Of a stretch of DNA of 26,601 bases, positions 3,319 to 22,535 are shown piece by piece (position 1 is the stretch's first letter; every line of letters begins with the position of its first letter). This DNA is from Candidatus Nanohalobium sp. (lineage in GTDB: Archaea; Nanohalarchaeota; Nanosalinia; Nanosalinales; Nanosalinaceae). A model generated the notes under the pieces. The model worked only from the letters and a program-made list of their open reading frames with translations. It was not told the DNA's origin and searched no databases. Where the stretch lies: contig JBDGTY010000005.1 in the NCBI GenBank assembly GCA_042216335.1, forward strand, positions 1-26,601, in the 5' to 3' direction. A program made the translations under genes and the position numbers.

Positions 3319-5639
3319 ACTCTGAAAACCTTCCTCTCCTCTTCCTCCTCTTCAACCTCCTCCGGGCTTTCATCGACCTCGACTTTCTCGATGTCAAGTT
3401 CTGTGAAGAAAGTCGAAGACCGGTCTTCCTCGGCCGTGATGTAAAGATACTGTTCGGCTCGGGTCATCGCGACGTACATCAGCCGGCGTTCTTCATCGTA
3501 CTCTCCTGAGAGACACTTTTCCAGTATCTCGGTCCGCCAGTTGTCGAAGCTGTACGCGTAGTCGTTTCTCAGGTATTTTTTTCTCTGGCGGAGACCGATC
3601 GGATCCTTGTAGGTTATGTTTGGCGAGAAGCTGTTTGTTGAGGGGAACTTGGACTGGTTGACGTCCGAAATGAAGACGACAGGATACTCCAGGCCCTTGG
3701 CGGCGTGGATGGTCTGTATCGTTACTGCGTTTTCGCTGCCGGTGCTGTCGACTTCGTAAATCTCTCCTTCCTCGATATTGTCCTCGATAAAGTTGATGAG
3801 CTGCCCCAGGTTCATGTAAGTCGAACTGAACGTCTCACCAAGCACCTCGATGATCTTCTCGGTAAAGCCGTTCCTGTAGCCGTATCTCTCGAAGACTTTC
3901 TCGGCGACTGCCTCGACCGAATCAGTTTTCTGGAGCTCCACCTCGAACTTCAGCATGTTCTTCGGGTAGTTTCCGTCCTTGACGATTTCCTCGGCTTCAT
4001 CCAGTTTGTAACCTGCCTCTTCCAGCACTACGGCCCAGCCCTTCCGGTTCTGACGGTTCTGGAGGATGCGGAGCCATGCCAGCAGCATAATCGCAGGATT
4101 AGTGGTGAAGAGTTCGACTCCTCCCTCGTAGGCCGCGGGGATATTATGTTTCCGGGCCTCGTTCTGCAGATCCAGGCCGAAGCTCCGCGTCCGGGCCAGA
4201 ACAGCCATGTCGCTGTAATCAAATCCTTCCGAACGCAAATCCTCCGAATTTGCTCCAGGAAGAGTCGCAGAACCTTCCGCCCTCATCTCCTGAATCTTAG
4301 CCAGCACCGCCTCTATCTCGTCCTCAGATTCAATCCTCAGTACTTCACCCACCTCGTCGACCTCGGACTCCAGAGATGTTATCTCCGGCGTCTCCGGGTT
4401 CTCCCTGTCGTTTGCGGGGAGTGAGAGAGATTGCTCAGCTTTTTCCAGTATCTCCTGAGTGGAGCGATAATTCTTCTTAAGTTCGATCCTCTCCACTTTT
4501 TCCGGCGAGAAGCTAACTCTCTCCTGACTTCCGTTAAGCTCCTCCGCGTACTTCCCCAGCCTTTCCTCGAACTCAAGTATGTTTTCGACAGCAGCGTACT
4601 GGAACGAGTAGATTGACTGTTTCCAGTCACCGACCACGCAGAAGTTAGGCTTATCGGCGAGAAGCAGCGCGAGCTTGAACTGTATCTCATTGGTGTCCTG
4701 GAACTCGTCGATCATGATATAGTCGAAGCCCTCGTCCTTCCTGACCTCAGGACGCCTGTAGAGCAGAGCGTAGGTCAGCACCATCAGAAAGCTGAAGTTA
4801 AGGTAGTTGCGGGAAAGACAGTACTCCAGATACTCGGTGTACAGGTCGTGAAGAAAACCTTTCAACTCTCCCCTGTCCTCCTGGAACGCTTTCTCGCAAA
4901 AATCCTTTCTCACCTGCTTGGTGCCGTAACCGCCACGCACATCGTCGATGGAAGGGGCCTCGGGCTCGAAGTTCTTCCACTTGTAGCTGTAGAGCCGCCT
5001 TCTCAACTCGCTCTGTTTCTGCCCTCCGTTCTCCTCGACAGGCCTGTTCTTTTCTTTGAAAAGTTCCTTGAACTCCTCGAAGTCGCCGTCAAGGTACTTC
5101 TCGGTGTCGCCGAACCACGAATCATCTTCAGGCATGATGCCCTTGGAGGCGATGGATTTCAGCAGAGACAGAAGGTTGGAGTCATCCCTGACAATCCTGA
5201 ATAGATCGCTGTATTTCTCATGTCGCTGCTTGAAGTCGCCGATGAACTCCTGGAACTCCTGGCGCTCCCTGATCTGACTCTCCATCACCTGAACGTTCTC
5301 AGTCAGGTGCTCATCGATGCCCAGCAGCTGAGGCGCCTCATGGCCGTTCCGCTCCAGTATCTTCTGGCAGTGAGCGTGGAAAGTCGAAATCGGGGAGTTG
5401 AAAATCTCCGAAGCCCTGTAATCCGACTTCTGGGAGATACGCTCCTTCATCTCATCTGCCGCGTTACGTGTAAAAGTCGCCAGAAAGATATCCTCAGGCT
5501 CCTGATCCTCCAGAATATTAATGTATCTGCGTGTAATAGTAAAAGTCTTGCCGGTCCCGGCCCCTGCATCAACCAGGTAGATTCCCTCAGTGTTCTCTAT
5601 CAGTTCCTGCTGTTGCTCGTTCGGAGAGAATTCTGTCAT
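3315..5639 (-). CDS. UvrD/REP (AddA-like) SF1 DNA helicase
   Basis: AGAGTGKT, TFTRNAA, STFHA, IDEFQDTN, VGDWKQSIYSF, NYRS, TIHAAKGLEY and EERRLMYVAMTRA motifs. Confidence 0.95.
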   Translation of the reverse strand: MTEFSPNEQQQELIENTEGIYLVDAGAGTGKTFTITRRYINILEDQEPEDIFLATFTRNAADEMKERISQKSDYRASEIFNSPISTFHAHCQKILERNGHEAPQLLGIDEHLTENVQVMESQIRERQEFQEFIGDFKQRHEKYSDLFRIVRDDSNLLSLLKSIASKGIMPEDDSWFGDTEKYLDGDFEEFKELFKEKNRPVEENGGQKQSELRRRLYSYKWKNFEPEAPSIDDVRGGYGTKQVRKDFCEKAFQEDRGELKGFLHDLYTEYLEYCLSRNYLNFSFLMVLTYALLYRRPEVRKDEGFDYIMIDEFQDTNEIQFKLALLLADKPNFCVVGDWKQSIYSFQYAAVENILEFEERLGKYAEELNGSQERVSFSPEKVERIELKKNYRSTQEILEKAEQSLSLPANDRENPETPEITSLESEVDEVGEVLRIESEDEIEAVLAKIQEMRAEGSATLPGANSEDLRSEGFDYSDMAVLARTRSFGLDLQNEARKHNIPAAYEGGVELFTTNPAIMLLAWLRILQNRQNRKGWAVVLEEAGYKLDEAEEIVKDGNYPKNMLKFEVELQKTDSVEAVAEKVFERYGYRNGFTEKIIEVLGETFSSTYMNLGQLINFIEDNIEEGEIYEVDSTGSENAVTIQTIHAAKGLEYPVVFISDVNQSKFPSTNSFSPNITYKDPIGLRQRKKYLRNDYAYSFDNWRTEILEKCLSGEYDEERRLMYVAMTRAEQYLYITAEEDRSSTFFTELDIEKVEVDESPEEVEEEEEERKVFRV
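4225..4279. repeat. 48-bp in-frame hairpin insertion flanked by the 7-bp direct repeat CCTTCCG, inside the UvrD gene
   Basis: CCTTCCG at 4225-4231 and 4273-4279; internal inverted repeat GCAAATCC-TCC-GAATTTGC (4235-4253). Confidence 0.6.
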
Positions 5640-21659: not shown

Positions 21660-21790
21660 GAGTCTGTAGCTCAGCTGGACAGAGCACTCGGTTCCTAAAT
21701 CCCTGTTCCACTGTGAAGAGGGTTCAAGAAAATCTGTGATTTTCAACTGGAGATACCGAGAGGTCGAGGGTTCAAATCCCTCCAGACTCG
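21660..21790 (+). tRNA. tRNA-Arg(CCT) with a 57-nt intron at 37/38 (intron 21698-21754)
   Basis: Acceptor GAGTCTG/CAGACTC, D-stem GCTC/GAGC, anticodon stem CTCGG/CCGAG, T-arm GAGGG-TTCAAAT-CCCTC; TTCC pairs with intron GGAG. Confidence 0.95.
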
Positions 21791-21797
21791 CAGCCAG

Positions 21798-21804
21798 TTT
21801 AAAT
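21798..21804 (+). promoter_or_regulatory. TATA box of tRNA-Leu
   Basis: TTTAAAT about 30 bp upstream of 21831. Confidence 0.55.
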
Positions 21805-21830
21805 CTTGTTATCAAACAGAGAAGATAGAT

Positions 21831-22100
21831 GCAGGGGTAGCCAAGTGGTCAAACTCCTGAGAGTTTGAAATCACAGAAAACCCTCAGCGGTTTTCGAGTG
21901 GTCAAACTCCTTACGGAGTTTTTCCTCGAACCATCTCTAACGAGAAAGTTCGATGGTCAAAGGCTAGAGGAGGACCAGAGGCGCAGCGTTCAGGAAACGA
22001 CTTTCTCCCCCGAGAGAAGGTCGTTGGAGAAGACGAATGTCTTCGATTTGAGATGCGCTGTCCCCTAGCGGGTTCGCAGGTTCAAATCCTGCCTCCTGCA
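21831..22100 (+). tRNA. tRNA-Leu(CAG) with two introns: 126 nt in the D-loop (about 21/22; 21853-21978) and 60 nt at 37/38 (21995-22054)
   Basis: The spliced product GCAGGGGTAGCCAAGTGGTCAA|AGGCGCAGCGTTCAGG|GCGCTGTCCCCTAGCGGGTTCGCAGGTTCAAATCCTGCCTCCTGCA is a typical 84-nt archaeal Leu tRNA; BHB1 is GGTC/GACC plus CTCCT/AGGAG; BHB2 is TTCA/TGAG. Confidence 0.92.
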
Positions 22101-22168
22101 CTTTCTCTACCGAACACACGCCAGGTCCAGTCCTTATGGCAAATAGATCCATGTCAAGAAATCCGATA

Positions 22169-22175
22169 TTTAAAA
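22169..22175 (+). promoter_or_regulatory. TATA box of tRNA-Arg(TCG)
   Basis: TTTAAAA about 30-35 bp upstream of 22206. Confidence 0.5.
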
Positions 22176-22205
22176 CTGGCCGAACCATTTCCCTCCATAA
22201 GGCGA

Positions 22206-22458
22206 GGGCCCGTAGCTCAGCTTGGACAGAGCATTCGGCTTCGGAGGCATGTTACGCTACGCCAACGCAACAAGCCATGCCTTATATGGCTTCCGGAAAG
22301 CTTGTGGATTCGAGGCGTAGCCGACTCGGTGAAACCAGTTTCACTCGATCGACTGAAATCTATTATTTCATCGAGGAATGGAACCCTAGTGACAGTCAGG
22401 TCGTAGGGCTCCGACCTAAGATACCGAAAGGTCCAGGGTTCAAATCCCTGCGGGCTCG
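22206..22458 (+). tRNA. tRNA-Arg(TCG) with a 178-nt intron at 37/38 (intron 22245-22422)
   Basis: Acceptor GGGCCCG/CGGGCTC, anticodon stem TTCGG/CCGAA, T-arm CAGGG-TTCAAAT-CCCTG; relaxed BHB CTTC/TAAG plus GG/CC. Confidence 0.92.
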
Positions 22459-22512
22459 TTATCAATCCGTTAATTTCTGGGAGAACTGTGGAACTGCTTC
22501 GTCTGGCAGTCC

Positions 22513-22535
22513 GTTTGAATCCCTGCGGGCTCGTT
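22513..22535 (+). repeat. Duplicated tRNA-Arg 3' end (att-like direct repeat)
   Basis: AATCCCTGCGGGCTCGTT is identical at 22443-22460 and 22518-22535; 21 of 23 bases match when extended to the GTT. Confidence 0.85.

Follow-up and report, generated by a model that had tools for sequence, protein, structure and literature searches.

The arrival mechanism of bulge-helix-bulge (BHB) introns in archaeal tRNA genes is stated to be unknown in the accessible text of two reports (PMC4090602; bioRxiv 10.64898/2026.10.13.758758), and several described systems offer points of comparison. Transposition of tRNA introns has been described in the Thermoproteales (Fujishima et al., 2010, as cited in excerpts of PMC4090602 and PMC3239211), and in Asgard archaea the same tRNA positions have gained introns repeatedly (bioRxiv 10.64898/2026.10.13.758758, in part). 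For Caldiarchaeum subterraneum, a model in which a mobile element brings about tRNA gene disruption has been put forward (PMC3293823, excerpts), and introns within introns, known as twintrons or stwintrons, are described for group II/III and spliceosomal introns (PMC11782384, excerpts). As to the processing enzyme, the available portion of a tRNA census links those alpha4 EndA enzymes of DPANN archaea that have a C-terminal loop to more disrupted tRNA genes and, as a separate point, associates a broad range of substrates with loops close to the catalytic His (PMC5829648). Among the papers listed by our literature searches, none dealt with stacked, nested or tandem BHB introns, and the tRNA introns of Nanohaloarchaea were covered there only by that census.

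Here we describe a tRNA-Leu(CAG) gene of a salt-lake archaeon with a 126-nt BHB intron in its D-loop, placed after G18-G19-U-C-A-A and built as a stack of modules that also occur separately. Like other archaeal BHB introns outside position 37/38, it has two 3-nt bulges around a 4-bp helix, is presumed to be cut by EndA, and is accompanied by a second intron at 37/38 of the same gene; unlike them, it places several modules at one insertion point with one 3' half-site, the 5' half-site being present two or three times. The likeness to the Thermoproteales, as far as the excerpts describe them, lies in near-identical introns in genes of different anticodon and in gain or loss among close relatives. 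The setting differs: the host, a halophile among the DPANN archaea whose EndA is small and single-unit, falls into another phylum-level group, every copy occupies one D-loop site in one isotype, and one module sits atop another intron and is kin to a dispersed non-intron element. With the Asgard introns the locus shares D-arm insertions that are overlooked by standard tRNA finders and positions that are repeatedly gained and lost, but the accessible part of that study contains neither stacking nor a source element, whereas here there are presence/absence pairs in two genera and a dispersed relative. In Caldiarchaeum, too, intron content varies in the population at one tRNA locus, which is explained by DNA-level insertion and recombination, although the element in the excerpts is 1.8 kb long and bears a recombinase, whereas the unit here is 53 nt and has no recombinase linked to it.

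A tRNA-Leu(CAG) gene with two introns

The window analysed is a stretch of 26,601 nt from an archaeal metagenome bin (1.02 Mb, 74 contigs, 96% complete), and all features described lie on its forward strand. The tRNA-Leu(CAG) gene (21831-22100) has one intron in the D-loop, of 126 nt (21853-21978), and another in the anticodon loop, of 60 nt (21995-22054). With both removed by a scripted join of 21831-21852, 21979-21994 and 22055-22101, ARAGORN reads the 85-nt product as a tRNA-Leu(cag) cloverleaf. The gene is intact. Exon 1 (21831-21852; predicted BHB cut after 21852) holds the 5' strands of the acceptor and D-stems and the D-loop up to GGTCAA, and matches uninterrupted paralogs and orthologs, which read ...GCCAAGTGGTCAAAGGCG. 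Exon 2 (21979-21994) comprises the 3' strand of the D-stem, the 5' strand of the anticodon stem and the loop TTCAGG, which reads TTCAGGG, uninterrupted, in the Leu(CAG) genes of G014 and G050; exon 3 (22055-22100) supplies the 3' strand of the anticodon stem, the variable arm, the T arm, the 3' strand of the acceptor and the discriminator A. The canonical 37/38 intron has a strict bulge-helix-bulge according to the BHB scan (TTCA/TGAG, bulges GGA and ATG, outer helix of 6 bp), and a DNA contig from run X1 skips precisely its 60 nt, joining 21994 to 22055.

ARAGORN in default mode finds no tRNA in the window and, when long introns are allowed, mislabels the gene as tRNA-Arg(cct) with a 186-nt intron; Rfam at the gathering threshold reports both neighbouring tRNAs and not this one. 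The gene is thus overlooked or called tRNA-Arg by these tools as run, in a genome whose commonest Leu codon is CTG (36.8%, from 12,526 Leu codons counted in a roughly assembled set of ATG-initiated ORFs of at least 300 codons). No other Leu(CAG) gene was found in this 96% complete genome.

Modular architecture of the D-loop intron

The first-pass annotation of this DNA had noted that a 15-mer spanning the exon/intron junction recurs exactly within the intron, and this holds: AGTGGTCAAACTCCT is present exactly twice, at 21844-21858 and 21897-21911, in identical form whether read directly or located by script. A window-wide search allowing up to two mismatches returns the same two places only, whereas 0.08 matches are expected per shuffled sequence and two or more were obtained in 1 of 100 shuffles. 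In a repeat search the pair extends to 27 nt at 81% identity (21832-21858 against 21885-21911), and a third, partial copy of the core TGGTCAAA begins at 21954.

These repeats delimit three modules of 53 nt (I1), 55 nt (I2) and 18 nt (I3), all of which start directly after GGTCAA. Copy 1 of the 15-mer consists of the exon end AGTGGTCAA and ACTCCT, the first 6 nt of I1, and forms the outer 5' half-motif. I1 itself (21853-21905), which is homologous to D-loop introns of relatives, contributes to two hairpins: SL1 (TCAAACTC-CTGA-GAGTTTGA, 21849-21868), which covers the outer 5' splice site, and the conserved second stem-loop SL2 (TCAC-A-GAAAACC-loop-GGTTTTC-GA-GTGG, 21872-21902), the 3' strand of which continues into the GG of copy 2. 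Copy 2 joins the 3' end of I1, again AGTGGTCAA, to the ACTCCT of the resident intron and so provides an inner 5' half. Because I1 ends in ...CGAGTGGTCAA and ACTCCT starts both I1 and the resident intron, the exon/I1 and I1/resident junctions are alike over 15 nt.

The resident intron comprises I2 and I3 (73 nt in total) and carries the only good 3' half, AGGAG-GACC-AG|A; I1 precedes it at exactly the same exon/intron junction. I2 (21906-21960) has hairpins at 21904-21921 and 21926-21951 and ends in GATGGTCAA. Copy 3 (TGGTCAAAGGC, 21954-21964) matches the uninterrupted D-loop/D-stem across the splice junction, and the corresponding place in the related gene G007:C1 reads GGCCCAAAGGC. The innermost module, I3 (21961-21978), has an 18-nt counterpart in G007:C1 and carries the shared 3' half (21968-21979), which is composed of AGGAG (helix h'), GACC (central helix) and the bulge AGA, with the predicted cut after 21978.

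Splice motif and choice of site

Both full copies of the 15-mer can pair with 21968-21978, as the annotation had proposed, and the BHB scan gives the same cuts, with predicted 5' cleavage at 21852/21853 or 21905/21906 and 3' cleavage at 21978/21979. Copy 1 pairs GGTC (21847-50) with GACC (21973-76) and CTCCT (21854-58) with AGGAG (21968-72); copy 2 offers 21900-03 and 21907-11 to the same 3' half. In either case the central helix has 4 of 4 Watson-Crick pairs and the 3-nt bulges are AAA and AGA, while h' comprises 5 bp with the outer copy and 6 bp with the inner one, which also lies nearer to the 3' half. Lying opposite the 3' bulge, 4 unpaired nt separate the 3-bp D-stem from the central motif and so interrupt the helix on the exon side (hout = 1); the D-loop motif therefore departs from the strict hBHBh' form and is of the relaxed kind. 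The cut rule applied, cleavage after the second bulge nucleotide, was checked by reasoning on the Leu(TAG) paralog and, for the canonical intron, against the DNA variant that lacks exactly 21995-22054.

To each motif we assigned a cost in kcal/mol, the price of forcing it relative to the free ensemble, computed by nearest-neighbour folding for 37 °C, with neither high salt nor protein taken into account. In the full precursor the outer 5' site with the shared 3' site costs 4.2 (4.4 in G069, the only other composite gene), inner copy 2 with that 3' site 5.1 (6.8 in G069) and copy 3 with it 4.0, values about 1 kcal/mol apart here and thus within method error. The resident intron alone costs 2.3 and the canonical intron 2.8. 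The predicted minimum fold contains no BHB conformer, and the bulge 21851-53 is paired there with 21919-21.

The genome encodes one EndA of 181 aa (PF01974+PF02778; G000:C10:9491-10033), and no second subunit was detected in it at E≤10. From its catalytic Tyr to its catalytic His this protein is 7 residues longer than the M. jannaschii enzyme (1A79), and the broad-specificity ARMAN-2 enzyme (4FZ2) also has extra residues at this site. The small single-unit EndA would have to cut a relaxed motif in the D-loop. In the model that folding favours, EndA would remove all 126 nt at once, using the outer 5' site (21852/53) and the shared 3' site (21978/79), and the inner copies (cuts at 21905/06 and 21960/61) would be decoys, the use of which would leave I1 in place. 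I1 would be unable to build a splice motif by itself, and stacking would be tolerated since a complete 5' half-site, that of the outer copy, would still stand beside exon 1.

Modules in related genomes

When the 126-nt intron was searched against a comparison set of 70 genomes of the order, G069 matched I1 (query 1-59, 90%), G007 matched I2+I3 (query 48-125, 78%) and G067 matched part of I1. The I1-type intron stands alone in Leu(CAG) (G014:C36) and Leu(TAA) (G014:C7) of one genome, in Leu(CAG) of G050 and in Leu(CAA) of G067; altogether, I1-type introns occur in six genes of five genomes, covering Leu(CAG), Leu(CAA) and Leu(TAA) genes in three genera. The I2+I3 type likewise stands alone, in G007:C1 Leu(CAA), where identity is 78% over window positions 21900-21977/83, and in G007:C15 Leu(TAA), with which I2 also aligns. 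No splice motif emerged for the G007:C1 intron, in which pairing of GGCC with GACC leaves a C-A mismatch and the top-scoring candidates restore no D-arm.

In the Leu(CAA) gene of G069, I1 precedes a different resident intron, of 40 nt, and the identical 15-mer again occurs twice; I1 and the G069 module agree in 47 of 54 aligned columns. G068, of the same genus as G069 and with the same 3' flank, has the 40-nt intron only, without I1, and two further members of that genus with this flank (G013 and G066) carry yet another intron. G002, which belongs to the genus of the host and has the same order of Arg(CCT) then Leu(CAG), shows no D-loop intron whatever in Leu(CAG). I1 is seen alone, atop two unrelated resident introns and once with a further insert. 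As in the transposed introns of the type described by Fujishima et al. (2010), a highly similar intron is found in non-orthologous genes (Leu(CAG) here, Leu(CAA) in G069), and presence and absence are seen at orthologous sites, between G069 and G068 (same genus and flanks) and between the host and G002 (same genus, synteny).

We found 15 D-loop-interrupted tRNA-Leu genes, in 11 of the 70 genomes, in a survey covering introns other than those starting with AGGD and D-loops of the form GCCAAG...GGYCAAA; in one pattern scan of 28 places, 16 were read in context and 12 were judged by their matched letters alone. A scan of metagenome contigs (113 stretches) and genome contigs (87) with an 18-mer from the 3' end of I1 (two degenerate positions) revealed no new I1 carriers: filtered for tRNA-Leu context, it left seven sequences, four of them known (G014 twice, G067 and G069) and three unrelated and bacterial.

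Of the two explanations that the first-pass annotation had offered for the repeat, repeated insertion at one site agrees with these comparisons. I1 behaves as a discrete unit: other tRNA-Leu genes have it by itself, in G069 it precedes a different resident intron, the G068 ortholog lacks it, and the syntenic Leu(CAG) gene of G002 has no D-loop intron of any kind. The sequence comparisons support the view that the repeat would be a record of such insertion; gain and loss of I1 both fit.

A dispersed two-hairpin element

I1 belongs to a dispersed family of two-hairpin elements. A covariance model built from four I1 sequences has full-length matches in 44 of the 70 genomes at E≤0.1. The element (model R1) consists of a variable SL1, a conserved SL2 of the form CAGAAAAYC-loop-GRTTTTCGA and then GTG, a layout that I1 shares, and full-length matches of R1 in other contexts score 30-47 bits. 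SL2 is the best-conserved part of the family. In an alignment of 28 element sequences 96.2% of cells pair, compared with 74.0% in shuffles, and 16 of 19 pairs have changed on both sides. Rfam gave no match at I1 at the gathering threshold and none in six element loci at E≤1, and a search of the host genome for a second copy of I1 that could have been the donor found none. We also note that the rps4 leader of G049 ends in ...TTTTCGAGTGGTCAAG, like I1; the rps4 start of the host genome reads differently.

Two possible properties of the element were considered and set aside. A promoter function of SL2 was dropped since the gene has a putative promoter box of its own, TTTAAAT at 21798-21804, about 30 nt upstream. 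Target-site duplication as a general property was rejected, as only 3 of 16 inspected copies have flanking direct repeats of at least 6 nt (11, 14 and 6 nt; control frequency for at least 6 nt, 0.086); two of the three are at tRNA genes, and the one with the 11-nt repeat is at a protein gene start.

The reading that we favour, and consider rather probable, is that of stacked modules removed in one step from the outer site, with the inner copies as decoys and I1 as a lodged copy of the dispersed element, which would have entered the D-loop at the DNA level. A more far-reaching proposal, which we advance tentatively and regard as possible but on the unlikely side, is that BHB introns of this lineage were born and stacked by the landing of this pre-existing element, I1 being one copy. 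The 3' end of the element (...UUUUCGA-GUGG) resembles D-loop A14-G15-U16-G18-G19, and the D-loop tetramer G18-G19-Y-Y could pair with its own second copy (GGCC/GGCC, GGUC/GGUC or GGCU/GGCU). By virtue of this self-pairing, an insertion that repeats the D-loop half-site would make a bulge-helix-bulge at once, and the host endonuclease would erase it from the RNA. Were the element to land again, on an intron already present, this would be tolerated for the same reason and would leave decoy splice sites.

Alternative explanations

Several other accounts of the locus must be set against one-step removal of stacked modules. Ordered, twintron-like splicing, in which one unit leaves first, be it I1 by means of GGUC/GGUC or the resident intron by means of copy 2, and the rest later, seems unlikely to us. 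Since the junctions are all GGTCAA|A, any order would yield the same mature tRNA, and solo I1-type introns in G014 and G050 can use self-complementary GGCC/GGCC or GGCC/GGTT central helices at 1.5-7.5 kcal/mol; such a route would need a perfectly conserved copy 2, which is indeed letter-perfect in both composite genes, a state that would fit constraint (from two-step splicing or another function) as well as recency. Here, though, forcing I1 into a motif of its own takes 19.2 kcal/mol within the full precursor (17.6 in G069) and still 12.8-13.4 when I1 is retained alone after loss of the resident intron, its h' would need a 2-nt bulge, and the outer motif is complete before any cut, unlike the logic of twintrons. 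The annotation's other proposal was a sequester/anti-sequester switch, with the outer 5' site trapped in 21849-21868 and freed when GAGTTTGA pairs with copy 2, so that conditions would tune the yield of tRNA-Leu(CAG). The alternative pairings that it named all exist (hairpins 21849-21868 and 21904-21921, cross-pairing 21861-68/21902-09), growing 5' fragments fold into the local hairpin before the cross-paired form, copy 2 is identical in both composite genes, and SL1 is conserved over the splice site, 4 of its 8 pairs having changed on both sides among four I1 sequences. Yet one arrangement dominates in silico: the cross-paired fold (-33.1 kcal/mol) lies 9 kcal/mol below the three local hairpins (-24.1), with pair probabilities in the full precursor of ~0.96 as against 0.02-0.035 for the hairpins (0.02 for SL1), which leaves no balanced pair of states. 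Moreover, the splice-site bulge stays paired with 21919-21 in the cross-paired form, the hairpin at 21904-21921 is absent from G069, the SL1 covariation comes from two lineages only, the same-genus ortholog does without any D-loop intron and no sensor or trigger is evident. We therefore give the switch little credence. Cross-pairing is an automatic consequence of the repeat, and in our preferred reading the alternative pairings would arise from stacking two modules that each open with an AAACUC...GAGUUU hairpin, with no dedicated switch and with the conservation of SL1 over the splice site treated as a trait of the I1 family.

It is similarly improbable that I1 has crippled splicing and that the gene is heading for loss, tRNA-Leu(UAG) reading CUG by wobble. 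The genome has a Leu(TAG) gene, and with I1 in place the cost of the productive motif rises from 2.3 to 4.2 kcal/mol and two decoys are added; against this, the exons and both motifs are all intact, CTG is the most used Leu codon, and G069 keeps the same architecture with an intact tRNA. Local tandem duplication, by which one ancestral D-loop intron doubled in place and diverged into I1 and I2, would account for their near-equal lengths (53 and 55 nt) and shared layout of a 5' AAACUC hairpin, a second hairpin and ...TTCGA-N-GGTCAA. TRF, however, reports no tandem array at score 30, I1 is nearer to the introns of G069 and G014 than to I2, I2 matches those of G007, and G069 carries I1 on an unrelated 40-nt resident intron; as both are more closely related to introns of other genomes than to each other, the modules do not represent a simple tandem duplication, and we judge this origin to have a slim chance. 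That the repeat is an assembly artefact, a suspicion that could attach to a metagenome bin of 74 contigs, is scarcely conceivable, since the repeat is merely 15 nt long, the unrelated assembly G069 has the same architecture, and Logan unitigs of run X1 cover 21754-21926, 21897-21973 and 21944-22099 without a difference, X1 being probably the sample of origin of the genome and hence a second assembly rather than a second sample. At 15 nt, the repeat falls below the 31-letter word length of the Logan run index. A look-up of runs for the stretch listed no RNA run, and the contigs compared with the locus came from DNA runs; those of X3 and X6 contain conserved tRNA parts only, and a relative in run X2 departs from the sequence exactly at 21853 and meets it again at 21975.

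Discussion

Stacked modules spliced out in one step from the outer site would set this gene apart from nested introns as described in the available parts of the twintron literature (PMC11782384). As there, a single position in the gene houses more than one intron unit, with competition between alternative 5' sites. A twintron depends on its inner intron leaving first, which rebuilds the outer signals, whereas the present gene already has a full outer motif in its primary transcript, and the module added to it lacks a workable one (13-19 kcal/mol). The locus offers a natural substrate with which to test how an archaeal endonuclease selects among identical 5' half-sites.

For the question of how BHB introns originate, the family offers three things: a self-contained unit of 53 nt that is cleanly present or absent in paired relatives within two genera; a range of settings for this unit, which stands alone, on two unrelated residents and once with an extra insert; and a dispersed genomic element of which it is a member. 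If only the ordinary reading is true, the gene is another multi-intron archaeal tRNA with an unusual, harmless repeat; if the landing model is true, it would explain in concrete terms, open to test, by what route archaeal tRNA introns arrive.

Organization of the tRNA-Leu(CAG) gene

Three intron-bearing tRNA genes, Arg(CCT), Leu(CAG) and Arg(TCG) in that order, occupy positions 21660-22458 of the window (contig C45), whose sequence is found in runs from salt-lake and hypersaline metagenomes; the genome itself comprises 1.02 Mb in 74 contigs (96% complete, 49% G+C). The tRNA-Leu(CAG) gene (21831-22100, + strand) begins with GCAGGGGTAGCCAAGTGGTCAA..., the 5' start common to every tRNA-Leu of this genome, and its T arm and acceptor strand are normal. 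When the D-loop intron (126 nt, 21853-21978) and the intron at the canonical position 37/38 (60 nt, 21995-22054) were cut out by script, ARAGORN recognized the 85-nt product as tRNA-Leu(cag) with a regular class II cloverleaf. This is the one Leu(CAG) gene found in the 96% complete genome, and CTG is the top leucine codon (36.8% in a crude ORF set). A TTTAAAT box lies ~30 nt upstream of the 5' end (21798-21804), at what we take to be the place expected for an archaeal TATA box.

The best-scoring bulge-helix-bulge (BHB) motif of the canonical intron predicts cuts after 21994 and 22054, and these are independently confirmed by a DNA contig from one metagenome run (X1) that skips exactly 21995-22054. 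Because this contig joins 21994 directly to 22055 (depth 34 versus ~50 for the main form), X1 contains a co-occurring variant that lacks precisely the 60-nt intron but retains the 3' portion of the D-loop intron.

A duplicated 5' half-site divides the D-loop intron into modules

The exact 15-nt repeat claimed in the first-pass annotation is present: AGTGGTCAAACTCCT occurs at 21844-21858 (copy 1, the outer site) and at 21897-21911 (copy 2), and nowhere else in the window is there a match with two or fewer mismatches (expectation 0.08). TGGTCAAA marks a third, partial occurrence at 21954 (copy 3). The caveat that the repeat might be an assembly artefact did not apply, as unitigs from X1 span 21754-21926 with 0 differences. 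After every one of these copies come an A and a new stretch, which divides the 126 nt into three modules, I1 (21853-21905), I2 (21906-21960) and I3 (21961-21978). I1 and I2 are laid out alike: an AAACUC...GAGUUU hairpin on the 5' side precedes a second hairpin, which is followed by ...TTCGA-N(N)-GGTC-AA; the end of I2, TGGTCAA, together with the AGGC that follows it, resembles an uninterrupted D-loop and D-stem. TRF detected no tandem array.

In a BHB scan of 3-4-3 geometry anchored on the canonical intron, copies 1 and 2 both fit the single 3' half at 21968-21979 (central helix GGTC/GACC, bulges AAA and AGA, h' of 5 or 6 bp), as in the proposal that two 5' halves can pair with one 3' half. 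The D-loop motif is relaxed, with an exon-side helix that is not contiguous, so that broad specificity of the splicing endonuclease, EndA, would be needed. We found one EndA gene (contig C10:9491-10033; L038:1264-1806), encoding 181 aa with both Pfam domains, and detected no second subunit in this genome. Compared with the strict M. jannaschii enzyme (1A79), the protein is longer by 7 residues (the NPYKQGD region) in the segment from the catalytic Tyr to the catalytic His, where the broad-specificity ARMAN-2 enzyme (4FZ2) has extra residues as well. Loop inserts near the catalytic His confer broad specificity, and DPANN alpha4-type EndA with a C-terminal loop is associated with more disrupted tRNA genes, according to one study (PMC5829648).

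Predicted splicing route and alternative pairings

Each candidate motif was forced in ViennaRNA and its cost expressed relative to the free ensemble, these being equilibrium, low-salt, protein-free values. The canonical intron motif costs 2.8 kcal/mol and the resident intron alone (I2+I3, 73 nt) 2.3 kcal/mol. In the full precursor, pairing of the shared 3' half with the outer site costs 4.2 kcal/mol (4.4 in G069, another genome of the order), with copy 2 5.1 kcal/mol (6.8 in G069) and with copy 3 4.0 kcal/mol, and thus the three motifs lie within ~1 kcal/mol of one another in the gene studied here. I1's own motif, GGUC/GGUC, costs 19.2 kcal/mol in the full precursor (17.6 in G069), and 12.8-13.4 kcal/mol when I1 is retained once the resident intron is gone. 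On these costs, a cut at copy 2 or 3 would strand I1 in the D-loop of the tRNA, and the forced folds point to one excision from the outer site as the most likely productive route.

The duplicated half-site had also been read as a sequester/anti-sequester switch, in which alternative pairings would control splicing of tRNA-Leu(CAG). The pairings named for it exist, and the hairpin over the outer site (SL1, 21849-21868) does span the 5' splice site, two exon nucleotides included; its pairing is kept through four double changes between the forms of I1 in this genome and G069 and that in a third genome, G014 (76/76 cells paired, from two lineages only), which speaks for some role of structure. However, the predicted ensemble shows no balance between hairpins and cross-paired fold: in silico, the cross-paired fold dominates the full precursor with a pair probability of ~0.96 versus 0.02-0.035 for the hairpins, and its local folding energy is -33.1 kcal/mol versus -24.1 kcal/mol for three separate hairpins. 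Moreover, the cross-paired arrangement is predicted to leave the outer-site bulge still paired, and G069 lacks an equivalent of the 21904-21921 hairpin. As modelled, the switch is unsupported; the other reading of the repeat, as the trace of several insertions at the same site, is supported by comparison with relatives.

I1 is present alone, stacked or absent among relatives

We searched the 70 genomes of the order in three ways, with the complete gene, with its D-loop intron by itself and with a pair of D-loop patterns, and read the hits. Insertions after GGYCAA are found in 15 tRNA-Leu genes from 11 of the 70 genomes. In G002, a genome of the same genus in which Leu(CAG) likewise follows Arg(CCT), the Leu gene is without a D-loop intron. 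An intron of I1 type stands alone in G014 (Leu-CAG and Leu-TAA), G050 (Leu-CAG) and G067 (Leu-CAA), and one of I2+I3 type stands alone in G007 (Leu-CAA and Leu-TAA; 78% identity to the Leu(CAG) intron). In Leu(CAA) of G069, I1 precedes an unrelated 40-nt intron and the 15-mer, identical to that of Leu(CAG), is again present twice; 47 of 54 aligned columns of the two I1 sequences are identical, with all differences in the two hairpin loops. G068, from the genus of G069 and with the same downstream flank, has the 40-nt intron only, and G013 and G066, which share genus and flank, have a different intron 2 nt further on. The D-loop site is thus one of fast intron turnover, where I1 comes and goes as one unit, in keeping with the prediction of repeated insertion.

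In another study's run (X2), contigs ~95% identical to the window cease matching exactly at 21853, and one resumes at 21975 with other letters between; they represent a close relative whose D-loop intron at this site is a different one. The I1-type intron of G067 (L081, G067:C19, ~1520-1620) holds a further insert of ~53 nt containing GGCGCAGCGTTC, 12 nt identical to the D-stem/anticodon-stem of tRNA-Leu(CAG/GAG) genes, which hints at recombination among tRNA-Leu genes.

The likeness of the junctions has a structural basis. Where an I1-type intron stands alone, the D-loop tetramer makes the central helix by pairing with an identical tetramer located at the intron 3' end (GGCC/GGCC in G014, GGCC/GGTC in G067, GGCC/GGTT in G050), and both bulges are AAA. 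G18-G19 followed by two pyrimidines is self-complementary when G-U pairs are allowed, and therefore the 3' half of a solo intron resembles a direct repeat of the exon end. The exon-like 3' end of I1, AGTGGTCAA, is followed by ACTCCT, the start of the intron behind it; I1 also starts with ACTCCT, hence the 15 identical letters. The principle also holds for a tRNA-His gene of G032, in which the tetramer is GGCT and the direct repeat is 13 nt long. In this gene (anticodon GTG; L044, G032:C31:4380-4680, - strand), from another family of the order, the repeat AGTGGCTTAAACT bounds a D-loop intron holding an 18-nt hairpin identical to window 21904-21921, a hairpin present also at G034:C40:581-601.

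I1 resembles a dispersed two-hairpin element

A covariance model built from four I1 sequences, with SL1 and the second I1 stem-loop (SL2, 21872-21902) as its structure, recovers the five expected I1 introns at 47-84 bits and gives further full-length matches at ~30-45 bits in many other places; 44/70 genomes have a match at E<=0.1. The element consists of a variable SL1, a conserved CAGAAAAYC-loop-GRTTTTCGA and then a GTG/ATG start codon. Many copies are placed after a stop codon and run up to the following gene, ending exactly at its GTG or ATG start, and the downstream genes, judged by eye from their first residues, are often translation-related (S4, S4e, S11, aIF2-gamma, Spt4). Copies include loci L290-L305 and, in this genome, C19:40232-40295(-), which by the same reading precedes an ATP-synthase proteolipid gene, C16:49656-49726(+) and C50:11290-11352(-). 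Further copies are found ahead of tRNA genes or within tRNA 3' trailers; after those in trailers comes a duplicate of the tRNA's last 14-21 nt. When 28 sequences were aligned, 96.2% of cells were paired versus 74.0% in shuffles, a figure favoured by fitting to the model. Covariation is strong: 16/19 pairs show changes on both sides, a level that none of the shuffles or slid registers approaches. The element has no match in Rfam, and a flanking direct repeat of at least 6 nt is present at only 3/16 copies. These matches indicate that I1 is one copy of an element that also occurs apart from tRNA introns.

In a Planctomycetaceae MAG (L098, L205, L209, L273 and others), a repeat containing GGTTTTCGAGTGGCCAAAGGCCA is present in many copies, some of them spaced by 123 nt; these probably belong to an unrelated family that matched the search pattern by chance.

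Repeats and long introns in other tRNA genes

Three tRNA genes of this genome have a trailer of 59-86 nt followed by a duplicate of at least their own last 16 nt: Arg-TCG (window 22443-22533), where AATCCCTGCGGGCTCG at the 3' end of the gene is repeated 59 nt downstream, and Leu-TAA and Arg-TCT, at C32 (~4007-4124, - strand) and C48:2071-2159. The layout also occurs in G014:C7, G033, G039, G050, G064 and G067, often with an SL2-like hairpin immediately preceding the duplicate. In tRNA-Arg(CCT), the 57-nt intron contains an exact 10-nt copy, GAGGGTTCAA, of the gene's own T arm (window 21718-21727 and 21766-21775) and then a GAAAATC-TGT-GATTTTC hairpin, in a region 88% complementary over 16 nt to 21862-21877 in I1. 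tRNA-Leu(CAA) (C10:5244-5369, - strand), missed by ARAGORN, has a D-loop intron at the same site starting with ACTCCA; the 5' CTCCA has two possible partners, each a TGGAG stretch, and the 3' half would thus be duplicated. By ARAGORN estimates very long introns are common in this genome (Trp 213 nt, Arg-TCG 178, Lys-TTT 156, Arg-GCG 137, Ser-TGA 120, Met 109), several long introns containing an AAACTCC...GGAGTTTCTGG hairpin. Among its long-intron tRNA genes, none but Leu(CAG) has a junction repeat of at least 9 nt.

Relationship to known introns

Multiple and non-canonical BHB introns are already known. Earlier reports describe similar introns spread between tRNA genes in Thermoproteales, called intron transposition, with the mechanism unknown (PMC4090602, PMC3239211), and, in Asgard archaea, repeated gains at the same positions, the arrival route being left open (10.64898/2026.10.13.758758). 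In the literature searched we found no report of introns stacked on one insertion point with a duplicated 5' half-site, nor any that derives a BHB intron module from a structured, dispersed element. The D-loop intron differs from a twintron in the strict sense because its outer signals are complete without prior splicing. The stacked tRNA-Leu intron bears on how BHB introns arrive.
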